Of a stretch of 64,000 bases of DNA, positions 31,906 to 37,303 are shown piece by piece. A program made the translations under genes and the position numbers. The notes below the pieces were generated by a model that ran no database searches, was not told the origin of the DNA, and was given only the letters and a program-made list of their open reading frames with translations. The DNA is taken from NCBI RefSeq assembly GCF_024700885.2, contig NZ_CP117016.1; one strand, written 5' to 3'. Every line of letters starts with the position of its first letter. Positions within the stretch are counted from its first letter, which is position 1. This stretch comes from Escherichia coli (GTDB lineage Bacteria; Pseudomonadota; Gammaproteobacteria; Enterobacterales; Enterobacteriaceae).

Positions 31906-33258
31906 ATGGCACTTGCAATGAAAGTAATCTCTCAAGTTGAAGCGCAGCGCAAGATTCTGGAAGAAGCAGTTTCCACTGCGCTGGAGTTGGCCTCAGGCAA
32001 ATCGGACGGTGCGGAAGTTGCCGTCAGCAAGACCACCGGCATTAGCGTAAGCACGCGTTATGGTGAAGTGGAGAATGTTGAATTCAATAGCGATGGCGCG
32101 TTGGGGATCACTGTTTATCACCAGAACCGCAAAGGTAGCGCATCGTCTACCGATTTAAGCCCGCAGGCCATTGCCCGCACCGTACAGGCGGCACTGGATA
32201 TTGCCCGTTATACCTCGCCAGATCCCTGTGCCGGCGTGGCAGACAAAGAGCTGCTGGCCTTTGACGCACCGGATCTCGACTTGTTCCACCCTGCGGAAGT
32301 TTCCCCGGATGAAGCCATTGAACTGGCGGCCCGCGCAGAACAGGCGGCATTGCAGGCGGACAAACGCATCACCAATACCGAAGGCGGCAGCTTTAACAGC
32401 CACTACGGTGTCAAAGTTTTCGGCAACAGCCACGGCATGTTGCAGGGTTACTGCTCTACGCGTCATTCGCTCTCCAGCTGTGTAATTGCTGAAGAAAATG
32501 GCGATATGGAGCGTGATTACGCCTACACCATTGGTCGTGCGATGAGCGATCTGCAAACGCCAGAGTGGGTTGGGGCCGACTGTGCTCGCCGTACTTTATC
32601 GCGCCTGTCACCGCGTAAACTCTCCACCATGAAAGCGCCGGTCATTTTTGCCAATGAAGTGGCAACCGGGCTTTTTGGGCATCTGGTGGGGGCGATAGCG
32701 GGTGGATCGGTTTACCGTAAATCTACCTTCCTGCTGGATTCGCTGGGTAAACAAATTCTGCCGGACTGGCTGACCATTGAAGAGCATCCGCATCTGCTGA
32801 AAGGGCTGGCCTCTACGCCATTCGACAGCGAAGGTGTGCGCACCGAGCGTCGCGATATTATTAAAGATGGCATTCTGACTCAGTGGCTGCTGACCAGCTA
32901 CTCGGCGCGGAAACTGGGGCTGAAAAGCACTGGACACGCAGGCGGTATTCACAACTGGCGGATTGCCGGACAAGGGCTAAGCTTCGAACAAATGCTCAAA
33001 GAGATGGGTACCGGGCTGGTGGTGACGGAGCTGATGGGCCAGGGCGTGAGTGCCATTACCGGTGATTATTCCCGTGGTGCAGCGGGCTTCTGGGTAGAGA
33101 ATGGCGAAATTCAGTATCCTGTTAGTGAAATCACCATCGCAGGTAATTTGAAAGATATGTGGCGCAATATTGTCACCGTCGGTAACGATATTGAAACACG
33201 CAGTAATATACAGTGTGGTTCTGTGCTGTTGCCGGAGATGAAAATCGCCGGGCAGTAA
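31906..33258 (+). CDS. pmbA: Metalloprotease PmbA (TldE)
   Basis: 450-aa ORF recognised as PmbA. Confidence 0.95.
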
Positions 33259-33438
33259 AAAAACTGGCGCGACCTGCCGCGCTATAAACTAAAAAATTAC
33301 ACAAAATCATTCGCACTGCATCGAGACGGAAAGTGAATGAGGGCCGGGGAGCGTACTCGCAGTACGTGACTCGGGCGAATGAGCGTAGCCGTCGATGAGG
33401 CAGTGTGAAGGATGAAGTGTAAATAAAAAAGGAAGTGA

Positions 33439-33828
<390 letters not shown>

Positions 33829-33961
33829 TTCCTTATTGGGCGGTGAAACGTTACCGCCCAACGCTTTCTTCTCCCTTCGTAAAATCACCGCAATATCTAT
33901 CTTCACCACGGCATATTCCTGCGTGTCGTCCTCATTTTTGCGAGGCGTTTTCCAGAAATGA

Positions 33962-33996
33962 ATGTAATGCATATGTAATGCTATAATGCATTACAC
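33962..33996. promoter_or_regulatory. Candidate operator/promoter of the relBE-like pair: repeated TGTAATGC motifs and palindrome TAATGCATTA overlapping a TATAAT -10 box
   Basis: Repeat motifs read directly from sequence 25-60 bp upstream of the antitoxin start. Confidence 0.4.
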
Positions 33997-34019
33997 TTTT
34001 CATAATTACCGGAGGCATA

Positions 34020-34262
34020 ATGGCCACACTTAACGTCCGCCTGGATGACAAACTGAAAAATGAGGCTTATGCGGTGCTGGAAAAATTAAATATCACGCCT
34101 ACTGAAGCAGTGCGACTGCTGTTTCAGTACGTTGCGGAAAATGGACGAATGCCGGTAAAAACGCTCACTGTCAGTGATAGTGAAGAAGCCTTGTTACGCA
34201 CTGTCAGGGAACGACTGGCCAACCCACAAGAGGCCATTAAGGTCCGACTGGATGAACTATGA
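34020..34262 (+). CDS. RelB/DinJ-family antitoxin (relB paralog)
   Basis: 80-aa ORF resembling E. coli RelB as I remember it; RBS GGAGG upstream. Confidence 0.8.
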   Translation: MATLNVRLDDKLKNEAYAVLEKLNITPTEAVRLLFQYVAENGRMPVKTLTVSDSEEALLRTVRERLANPQEAIKVRLDEL

Positions 34263-34542
34263 GCTGGCGTTTGATCCGCGGGCGCTGAAAGAGTGGCAAA
34301 AACTGGGCGTGACAGTCCGGGAACAATTTAAAAAAAAGCTTGAGGATGTGCTGAAAAGGCCGCGCAATCCATCGGCTAAACTGCGGGATTTACCGGACTG
34401 CTACAAAATTAAGCTGCGCACACAGGGATATCGCCTGGTTTATCAGGTTAACGATAAAGAGTTGCTCGTGTTGGTGATAGCTATTGGTAAGAGAGAGAAC
34501 TCAGCCGTTTATGAAGACGCGACTAAACGGCTGGATGAGTGA
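34252..34542 (+). CDS. RelE/ParE-family mRNA interferase toxin (relE paralog)
   Basis: 96-aa ORF starting at MNYELAFDPRALKEW..., overlapping the antitoxin by 11 nt; strongly RelE-like (PDCYKIKLR, GYRLVYQV motifs). Confidence 0.85.
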   Translation: MNYELAFDPRALKEWQKLGVTVREQFKKKLEDVLKRPRNPSAKLRDLPDCYKIKLRTQGYRLVYQVNDKELLVLVIAIGKRENSAVYEDATKRLDE

Positions 34543-35007
34543 CTAACGCAAATGATGCACCACCTGATTGCTGCTGCCGCGCCAGATCAGGGAAGGGTCT
34601 TTTAAATCCTGCACAAATTTGCCGTCGACCAGTACGTTAATCAAATCAACAACCTGCATTTGCGCAGCGTTGAGTTCGTCGAGTTTATAGCCTGTCCACA
34701 CCCAAATGTCTTTACCCGGACATTCGGCGCGGATTCGTTGTACCAGTTTCAGAATATCCGGCACGTTTTGCGGATGCAGCGGATCGCCGCCGGAGAGGGA
34801 AATACCCTGGCGTTTGATGCGAGTGTCATTCAGATCGTTAATGATCTGGTCTTCCATTGCTTTGGTAAATGGCTGACCGGAATTTACCCGCCAGGTGCTT
34901 TTGTTATAGCAACCGGGGCATTCATGAACACACCCGGAGACAAACAGGGTGCAGCGAGTGCCGGGGCCGTTGACGATGTCGACAGGATAGTACTGATGAT
35001 AATTCAT
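34543..35007 (-). CDS. nrdG: Anaerobic ribonucleoside-triphosphate reductase activating protein
   Basis: 154-aa radical-SAM activase ORF (CxxxCxxC region). Confidence 0.95.
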   Translation of the reverse strand: MNYHQYYPVDIVNGPGTRCTLFVSGCVHECPGCYNKSTWRVNSGQPFTKAMEDQIINDLNDTRIKRQGISLSGGDPLHPQNVPDILKLVQRIRAECPGKDIWVWTGYKLDELNAAQMQVVDLINVLVDGKFVQDLKDPSLIWRGSSNQVVHHLR

Positions 35008-35039
35008 TATTTCGCCTGGCTTATCAGTCCGCGTGTAGG

Positions 35040-35150
<111 letters not shown>

Positions 35151-35164
35151 GCGCAGAGTGAAGA

Positions 35165-37303
35165 TTAACCTATCTGCCCATTTCCCAAATGTTTAACGCG
35201 GCGCTTAACTTCTTCCTGCTTACCAGCGTTAAACGGACGTGCATCCGGGCTACCTAAATATCCGCACACGCGGCGAGTCACCGATACACGGGAGGTGTCA
35301 TGGTTACCACATTTCGGACAAGTGAAGCCTTTACTAGTGCACTCGAACTCACCGGTAAAGCCACACTCGTAGCACTCATCGATCGGCGTATTGGTGCCGT
35401 AATACGGTACATGCTGATAGCTGTAATCCCAGACATCTTCCAGCGCCTTCAGGTTGTGCTGAATGTTTGGATACTCGCCGTAGCAAATGAAACCACCGTT
35501 CGCCAGCGGCGGGTAAGGCGCTTCAAAGTCGATCTTGTCGTATGGGTTCACCTTCTTCTCCACATCGAGGTGGAAACTGTTGGTGTAGTAACCTTTATCG
35601 GTCACGCCCGGCACCACGCCAAACTCAGCGGTATCGAGACGGCAGAAGCGGTCGCACAGGTTTTCACTTGGCGTGCTGTAGAGACTGAAACCGTAACCCG
35701 TTTCTTCTTTCCACTGATCCACTGCCTGACGCAGACGTTCAACAATTGCGATACCTTTCGCGCGAAGCTGCTCGTTGTCGTAAACATGCTCGCCGCCGAA
35801 CAGCGCGTTAATGGTTTCGTGGATGCCGATGTAACCCAGCGAAATAGACGCACGACCGTTTTTGAAGATTTCAGAAACATCATCGTCAGCATTGAGACGC
35901 ACGCCACAAGCACCTTCCATATAGAGGATCGGGGCCACGCGCGCTTTCACGCCTTCGAGACGAGCGATACGGGTCATCAGCGCTTTACGTGCCAGCACCA
36001 GACGTTCATCCAGCAGCTTCCAGAAGGTGGCTTCATCGCCTTTTGCTTCCAGAGCAATACGCGGCAGGTTCAGGCTGATCACGCCGAGGTTGTTACGACC
36101 ATCGTGGATCTGCTCGCCGTTTTCATTTTCCCACACGCCGAGGAAGCTGCGGCAGCCCATCGGGGTTTTAAACGAACCGGTGACTTTCACTACCTGATCG
36201 TAGTTCAGGATATCCGGATACATGCGCTTGCTTGCGCACTCCAGCGCCAGCTGTTTGATGTCGTAGTTCGGATCGCCTTTTTTATGGTTCAGACCATCGC
36301 GAATTGCAAACACCAGTTTCGGGAACACCGCAGTTTTACGGTTTTTACCGAGGCCTGCGATACGATTACGCAGGATAGATTCCTGAATCAGGCGCGATTC
36401 CCAGCTGGTGCCCAGACCAAAACCAAAGGTTACAAACGGTGTTTGACCGTTGGCGGTGTGCAGGGTGTTTACTTCGTACTCCAGCGACTGGAAGGCATCG
36501 TAGCACTCTTTGATGGTACGAGAGTTAGCGTAGCCTTCGGCGTCCGGGATGTTCCACTCTTCTGCGGTCTTGCGATGTTTGTTGTAGCTGGCGGTGACAA
36601 ACGGTGCCAGCACTTCATCGATACGGTTAATGGTGGTGCCGCCATAAATATGGCTGGCGACCTGGGCAATAATCTGCGCAGTTACCGCGGTTGCCGTAGA
36701 GATCGACTTCGGCGGTTCAATCTCGGCGTTCCCCATTTTAAAGCCCTGGGTCAGCATGCCTTTCAGGTCGATCAACATGCAGTTGAACATCGGGAAGAAC
36801 GGTGAGTAATCGAGATCGTGATAGTGAATATCACCACGTTCATGTGCCTGCACCACGTCACGCGGCAGCAGGTGCTGGCGTGCATAGTGTTTAGCCACGA
36901 TCCCGGCCAGCAGATCGCGCTGGGTTGGAATCACCTTGCTGTCTTTGTTGGCGTTTTCGTTGAGCAACGAGGAGTTGGTCTGCTCGACCAGACCACGGAT
37001 CTCCTGGTTCAGGCGGCCGCGTTTTTCACGTTCAATGTCGCGATCGTGACGGTACTCGATGTAAGCACGAGCCAGTTGTTTGTATGGACCCGACATCAGC
37101 TGGTTTTCAACTGCGGTCTGGATCTCATTGATATCCACCTGGTTGCGGCCCTGCATCTGCTCGCTGACAACCGCAGCAACAGTGGCGCAATAATCGGCAT
37201 CATCGACTTCCGCTGCTTTAGCTGCACGCAGAATCGCTTCTTTGATGCGCTCTGATTTAAACGGCACTTTGCAGCCGTCTCGTTTCATCACATGCGGTGT
37301 CAT
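35165..37303 (-). CDS. nrdD: Anaerobic ribonucleoside-triphosphate reductase (class III RNR)
   Basis: 712-aa ORF with C-terminal glycyl-radical region and Cys-rich zinc site. Confidence 0.95.
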   Translation of the reverse strand: MTPHVMKRDGCKVPFKSERIKEAILRAAKAAEVDDADYCATVAAVVSEQMQGRNQVDINEIQTAVENQLMSGPYKQLARAYIEYRHDRDIEREKRGRLNQEIRGLVEQTNSSLLNENANKDSKVIPTQRDLLAGIVAKHYARQHLLPRDVVQAHERGDIHYHDLDYSPFFPMFNCMLIDLKGMLTQGFKMGNAEIEPPKSISTATAVTAQIIAQVASHIYGGTTINRIDEVLAPFVTASYNKHRKTAEEWNIPDAEGYANSRTIKECYDAFQSLEYEVNTLHTANGQTPFVTFGFGLGTSWESRLIQESILRNRIAGLGKNRKTAVFPKLVFAIRDGLNHKKGDPNYDIKQLALECASKRMYPDILNYDQVVKVTGSFKTPMGCRSFLGVWENENGEQIHDGRNNLGVISLNLPRIALEAKGDEATFWKLLDERLVLARKALMTRIARLEGVKARVAPILYMEGACGVRLNADDDVSEIFKNGRASISLGYIGIHETINALFGGEHVYDNEQLRAKGIAIVERLRQAVDQWKEETGYGFSLYSTPSENLCDRFCRLDTAEFGVVPGVTDKGYYTNSFHLDVEKKVNPYDKIDFEAPYPPLANGGFICYGEYPNIQHNLKALEDVWDYSYQHVPYYGTNTPIDECYECGFTGEFECTSKGFTCPKCGNHDTSRVSVTRRVCGYLGSPDARPFNAGKQEEVKRRVKHLGNGQIG

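Follow-up and report, generated by a model that had tools for sequence, protein, structure and literature searches.

A RelBE toxin–antitoxin operon abutting nrdG in Escherichia coli, probably an old chromosomal neighbour rather than a recent insertion

Between cybC and nrdG, the window (i.e., the whole stretch of 64,000 nucleotides of E. coli DNA analysed here) carries an antitoxin gene and a toxin gene of the RelBE type, along with the features collected in Table 1. The two genes lie in different frames and overlap by 11 nt (34252–34262), while the TGA stop of relE (34540–34542) abuts the TAG stop of the convergent nrdG (cta on the + strand, 34543–34545) with a spacing of zero. The start of relE is a conserved ATG (34252), which aligns with Met1 of K-12 RelE and equals the RefSeq annotation in other strains; the GTG at 34174, given as the relE start in a mechanical list of open reading frames, was rejected because the conserved start is this ATG. 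Their 11-nt overlap, a single promoter-like region upstream and the GGAGG in front of relB make them a closely coupled bicistron.

Table 1. Features of the cybC–nrdG region, in window coordinates.
Feature	Position	Strand	Description and evidence
cybC (cytochrome b562)	33442–33828		intact, 128 aa; NCBIfam cytochrome b562 equivalog, 1e-57
Allele-specific segment	33832–34546	.	715 bp; alignment with L001–L005, K-12 MG1655 annotation
cybC intrinsic-terminator-like hairpin	33836–33861	+	11-bp stem, then CGCTTTCTTC; terminator scan, alignment
Putative relBE promoter and operator	33962–33996	+	repeats, hexad scan, conservation in all syntenic genera
Shine-Dalgarno GGAGG	34011–34015	+	4 nt before the relB ATG; read from sequence
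relB	34020–34262	+	ATG start, 80 aa, stop TGA; Pfam RelB, NF008412, solved K-12 RelB
Left 8-bp direct repeat CTGGATGA	34248–34255	+	relB codons L77-D78-E79
relE-type toxin	34252–34542	+	96 aa, 291 nt; colinear with solved K-12 RelE
A8 homopolymer in relE	34330–34337	+	KKK codons; alignments
Hairpin in the relE 3' end	34502–34533	-	10-bp arms (34502–34511 and 34524–34533), 12-nt loop; repeat search, fold
Right 8-bp direct repeat CTGGATGA	34531–34538	+	relE codons L94-D95-E96
nrdG (anaerobic ribonucleotide reductase activase)	34543–35007	-	NCBIfam NF008335, 2e-94; synteny

The antitoxin matches the Pfam model of the RelB/DinJ ribbon-helix-helix family (RelB, PF04221, 6e-16) and the NCBIfam RelB equivalog (NF008412, 130 bits against a cut-off of 96, 2.5e-38), and it is identical to the solved K-12 RelB at 38 of 80 residues (E 1e-20). 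The toxin aligns with the solved E. coli K-12 RelE over residues 1–94 of both proteins without a gap (phmmer E 2e-35; 61 of 94 residues identical, i.e., 65%). In the latter, K52, K54, R61, R81 and Y87 surround the scissile phosphate, R61, R81 and Y87 being the ones that matter most upon mutation (PMC2807027); all five are kept at the same positions in the window RelE and are also found in nine intact or extended syntenic orthologues, while the copy of strain E69 ends before Y87. A preliminary description of the locus had recognised the RelB/RelE pair, its 11-nt overlap and the contact of the two stops, all of which hold (the similarity to RelB and RelE being far above chance level), and it had named the catalytic residues as a point to be checked by alignment. 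Separately, relB contains a 19-nt direct repeat (34030–34048 and 34237–34255; 89% identical), the two copies of which encode LNVRLDD close to the N-terminus and IKVRLDE close to the C-terminus.

Upstream of relB, the motif ATGTAATGC is repeated directly (at 33962 and 33973; 11-nt spacing) and is also present in inverted form (33988–33996), and these copies flank an extended -10 element, TGCTATAAT (33979–33987). The core hexad of K-12 relO is [A/T]TGT[A/C]A, in two abutting 12-bp palindromic half-sites (PMC2812701). Three relO-type hexads are present in the putative operator, two exact and a third beginning with G, in a layout that differs from that of K-12 relO. Across the window, ATGTAATGC is no more frequent than expected by chance (16 occurrences vs. 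17.5 expected), so that only its local cluster and the conservation of the latter count as evidence; the operator block around the extended -10 is indeed conserved across the four genera of syntenic loci described below. A generic promoter scan returned no full sigma-70 -35/-10 match upstream of relB, and no good -35 element is visible; we therefore base the promoter call on the extended -10 and its conservation. The start region GGAGGCATAATG is kept in nine of the ten loci retaining it, the tenth (L024) reading GGGGGCATAATG, with a single G-for-A change, whereas one further locus (L017) lacks the region. Finally, the terminator-like hairpin behind cybC is confined to the relBE-bearing allele.

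Among 5426 complete E. coli genomes, toxin DNA was detected in 393 and antitoxin plus promoter DNA in 454, while about 4970 have neither. The copies are nearly all single (median of one per genome). In K-12, UTI89 and about 92% of the complete genomes, the 715-bp allele-specific segment is swapped for an unrelated, hairpin-containing stretch of 45 bp, which makes the locus 670 bp shorter. At its right boundary, this segment extends into nrdG, over its stop codon and the third position of its last Arg codon, both of which are altered in the empty allele. In K-12 MG1655, cybC (intact in the window) is an annotated pseudogene and lies 44 bp from nrdG. This 44-bp spacer (UTI89 L001 830–873; K-12 4459856–4459899) consists almost wholly of a hairpin with a 14-bp stem (-23.3 kcal/mol, z -6.8 in the cybC sense), with no clear downstream U-tract on either side.

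The order relB-relE-nrdG-nrdD, in the same orientation, was recovered at 11 species-level loci by scanning one genome per species, followed by tblastn searches with the neighbouring genes. These loci belong to Citrobacter amalonaticus, three Enterobacter species and one Enterobacter MAG, three Kosakonia species, one more MAG, E. albertii and the divergent E. coli strain E69; moreover, the complete order yjgA-pmbA-cybC-relB-relE-nrdG-nrdD is found on contigs with E. fergusonii-type and E. marmotae-type RelB. At the syntenic loci, RelB has 80 residues and, where relE is intact, its stop lies 0–8 nt from that of nrdG. Outside Escherichia, RelE has 94 residues and the spacer measures 3–8 nt (with the exception of Enterobacter sp. 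Bisph1), while two extra codons (DE) bring it to zero in Escherichia. The left neighbour varies: Escherichia has cybC there, and the other loci have a PRD-type regulator or an AraC-type gene. The relBE module thus moves together with nrdG. Identity to the window proteins amounts to 88–94% for NrdG, 80–91% for RelB and 63–74% for RelE and declines across the loci in a common order for the three proteins, with RelB dN correlating with NrdG dN (r = 0.75). For dN/dS, the medians are 0.08 (relB) and 0.09 (relE), dN being far below dS in both genes, but these are rough values, dS being saturated (>1, with several undefined pairs) and the ratio thus unreliable, so that only dN and identity were used. 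Whereas RelB is better conserved than RelE within this nrdG-linked clade (80–91% vs. 61–74% over the loci L007–L011, L016, L018, L024 and L028), the reverse is true of unlinked homologues (RelE 57–68%, RelB 36–56%).

The same chromosomal site exists in several decayed states. According to DNA-match counts, about 61 E. coli genomes have antitoxin DNA without toxin DNA, and a deletion was verified in three of them, O145 and ESDR8 (L003, L005) and IAI39 (L086), in which the orphan relB allele is annotated. There, relE has been lost between the two in-frame copies of CTGGATGA: recombination between them removes 283 bp, i.e., all of relE beyond the overlap, and leaves a RelB of 79 residues that ends in RLDE and whose gene abuts nrdG. 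The alleles of O145 and ESDR8 differ from that of IAI39 in the base just before the CTGGATGA junction (CGG vs. CGA) and at residue 72 (T vs. A). Because of the one-base difference by the repeat, the deletion either occurred twice or is old, and these junction sequences suggest that it may have arisen more than once. A second kind of lesion affects the A8 run of relE (L092, L094–L096, L004 and L017), which shows a -1 frameshift with relB intact in E. marmotae-type loci and a -1 frameshift with most of relB lost in E. albertii, which suggests that the run is a slippage hot spot for toxin inactivation. Moreover, a frameshift near the relE 3' end removes Y87 in strain E69, an IS100 element (istA/istB) lies within relE next to an intact relB in E. 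coli O158:H23 CFIAFB20140388 (L088 4089–5890), and the relE stop has been lost in Enterobacter sp. Bisph1 (L028 3001–3354), where the gene for a toxin of 117 residues overlaps the coding sequence of nrdG by 63 nt in antisense. Such a toxin-first order of decay is expected, since losing the antitoxin first would be lethal with an active toxin.

We regard relBE as an old, vertically inherited neighbour of nrdG in the Enterobacteriaceae, organised as a canonical type II RelBE operon, and not as a recent insertion (with a probability of about 0.8). The preliminary description had taken the pair for an accessory module inserted between cybC and nrdG, on the grounds that K-12 MG1655 has none there. 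The annotation of K-12 does show 44 bp and no gene in this interval, and the pair is variable within E. coli, as the 393 toxin-bearing genomes indicate, but the direction implied by “inserted” is not supported by the data. A horizontally acquired addiction module, recently inserted into an originally empty cybC–nrdG spacer of some E. coli lineages, would account for the absence of relBE from K-12 and about 92% of the complete genomes, for a GC content mildly lower than that of the flanks (0.45–0.49 vs. 0.51–0.56) and for the scatter of RelE homologues (57–68% identity) across Proteobacteria in other contexts, at least one of them on a plasmid contig. Yet it fits poorly with the presence of the same pair and operator beside nrdG in four genera and several Escherichia species, with a RelB divergence that tracks that of NrdG, with a varying left neighbour, with E. 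coli toxin haplotypes that differ by up to 3.6% and with E. coli copies that are all chromosomal, none being on a plasmid. Nor does the segment bear the signature of a mobile island: its composition shows no sharp break from the flanks, no integrase, transposase or IS gene lies between cybC and nrdG in the window, neither flanking repeats nor a target-site duplication were found at the 33832/34546 boundaries by alignment and repeat search, and the empty allele, rather than being a site of clean excision, is another 45-bp sequence with an altered nrdG stop codon. Recent insertion is thus quite improbable, and the K-12 state is better read as a loss or replacement of relBE. Homologous recombination that co-transferred relBE with nrdG between genera would give the same pattern as vertical inheritance; the most economical reading is vertical descent followed by recurrent losses, the ancestral presence of relBE being deduced from 11 loci and a few contigs.

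As to the nature of the toxin itself, its best Pfam match bears the name ParE_toxin (PF05016, 6.6e-15, above the cut-off, followed by PF15781, 1.7e-08), which might point to a ParE-type gyrase poison instead of an mRNA endonuclease. This is very hard to sustain, since the PF05016 model covers the RelE/ParE superfamily, while the toxin shares 65% of its residues, in a colinear alignment, with the K-12 RelE whose structure on the ribosome has been solved, possesses the RelE catalytic set, exceeds the cut-off of NCBIfam RelE_StbE (TIGR02385) and is paired with RelB, not ParD. Alternatively, the window pair could be a domesticated or decaying remnant, with an attenuated RelE and a RelB retained for a task unrelated to its own toxin, whether to act as a transcription factor or to counter related mobile RelE toxins (“anti-addiction”). 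The stronger conservation of RelB than of RelE in the nrdG-linked clade, reversed outside of it, speaks in its favour, as does the survival of an intact relB and its promoter after the toxin in the 61 or so E. coli genomes (three verified), the E. marmotae-type loci, E69 and the IS100-bearing locus. We nevertheless hold it unlikely, because no part of relE is missing in the window and its catalytic residues are complete, because relE dN lies far below dS across genera, and because an antitoxin outlasting its toxin is the expected order of neutral decay, for which no new function is needed. Within the preferred reading of an old, inherited RelBE operon, some of the intact-looking toxins could still be weak, given the faster divergence of RelE in the nrdG-linked clade and the frequent loss of the toxin, and the conservation of RelB, together with the intact orphan relB genes, allows for a toxin-independent role of RelB.

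The contact between relE and nrdG leaves no room for an intergenic terminator, and the last 14 codons of relE contain a hairpin that, in the nrdG sense, begins 9 nt past the stop of nrdG, precedes AGUUCUCUCUCUU and folds at -14.6 kcal/mol (z -3.1). Its eight core pairs are all kept in eight of ten syntenic loci, compared with at most six of eight (mean of 3.8) in 65 colinear relE homologues that are not linked to nrdG. Two pairs show compensatory changes, but this covariation is of limited strength, being matched by 10 of 500 shuffles, and the syntenic loci form one clade. In Citrobacter and Enterobacter wuhouensis, the hairpin has a 12-bp stem, a loop of 4–6 nt and a T-rich tail, and a generic terminator scan flags it on the nrdG strand in the Citrobacter and Enterobacter orthologues, whereas the same scan does not call it in the E. 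coli window (12-nt loop, U/C-mixed tail) or in Kosakonia sacchari. As for strand preference, G-U pairs favour the nrdG sense slightly, and both strands fold about equally in E. coli. The preliminary description had pointed out that read-through from either side would create antisense overlap with nrdG; the hairpin is a candidate terminator or 3'-end stabiliser of nrdDG and, if working, may limit nrdDG read-through to about 50 nt of relE. A strong hairpin is also present in the empty K-12 allele, 4 nt after the nrdG stop, which would fit a need for structure at the nrdDG 3' end. An Rfam scan of 33200–35400 returned no RNA family in the relBE segment, giving only one chance-level match besides sub-threshold hits to naRNA4 (35–42 bits, below the gathering score of 59.5); the latter concern the nrdG–nrdD spacer (35027–35178), which contains REP/BIME-like repeats.

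A tentative extension, to which we would give a rather low probability, is that relBE has been tied to the nrdG 3' end since before the split of Escherichia, Citrobacter, Enterobacter and Kosakonia, as the last 40 nt of relE would double as the terminator or stabilising hairpin of nrdDG. The nrdDG mRNA would then carry a tail of about 50 nt antisense to relE, and RelB would be under stronger constraint than RelE, possibly owing to a toxin-independent role. If true, such a bond would explain why the module can be lost only when another hairpin takes its place, as in the K-12 allele. Should the hairpin end nrdDG transcripts, the coding sequence of a toxin would serve a convergent housekeeping operon, which could link a stress toxin to the anaerobic dNTP supply.

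By homology to K-12 RelBE, the toxin would enter the ribosomal A site and cleave mRNA, whereas the C-terminal part of RelB would bind and neutralise it. The N-terminal ribbon-helix-helix of RelB would repress the operon through the TGTAA-type repeats flanking the -10, and the 11-nt overlap would couple the translation of relB and relE. Toxicity, neutralisation, mRNA cleavage and operator binding are thus predicted properties of the window pair.

The pair is a real, ordinary and already annotated RelBE module, probably linked to nrdG from ancestral times and lost from most E. coli. Its exact toxin and antitoxin sequences occur on at least 1000 public contigs, where they are already named as RelE/RelB family, and RefSeq annotations include them in hundreds of genomes; a textbook RelBE of this kind, already named by annotation pipelines, contributes little as a gene pair. 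The PADLOC defence library gave no meaningful match and hence no support for a known anti-phage system, and a literature search (relBE with nrdG, cybC with toxin-antitoxin, RefSeq protein accessions) returned no paper on this locus. What the locus offers is one chromosomal site at which the module can be seen intact, without its toxin, frameshifted, interrupted by an IS or replaced altogether, both within and between species, i.e., a clean natural series for the toxin-first decay of chromosomal toxin–antitoxin loci and for the question of whether orphan antitoxins keep a function.

The closest known system is K-12 RelBE (relB b1564 and relE b1563), located in the Qin cryptic prophage. The two pairs share the order of antitoxin then toxin, an identical RelE catalytic set within a gapless alignment (61/94), a RelB identical at 38/80 residues with a ribbon-helix-helix N-terminus and the same C-terminal LDEL, and, in the window as a putative element, an operator of TGTAA-type hexads that overlaps the promoter. 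In contrast to the prophage-borne K-12 pair, the window pair adjoins nrdG in the core chromosome, has a different overlap length between relB and relE (11 nt in the window), two extra C-terminal residues (DE) in RelE, which close the gap to nrdG, and no hokD-like gene downstream. Its putative operator also differs, with two direct 9-mers at 11-nt spacing plus an inverted copy around the -10, instead of two abutting 12-bp half-sites. The RelE/StbE-type homologues of other Proteobacteria (TIGR02385) resemble the window toxin in their length and colinearity (57–68% identity) and in having a RelB-like antitoxin upstream, but these antitoxins are only 36–56% identical, and the pairs neither lie beside nrdG nor have the 3' hairpin (at most 6/8 pairs). 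Finally, abundant orphan antitoxins and decayed chromosomal toxin–antitoxin loci have been reported in surveys of E. coli (PMC10790755), in which an nrdG-linked relBE locus is not mentioned; the allelic series at nrdG fits this pattern and differs from it in that the exact lesions, a microhomology deletion and an A8 frameshift, are visible.
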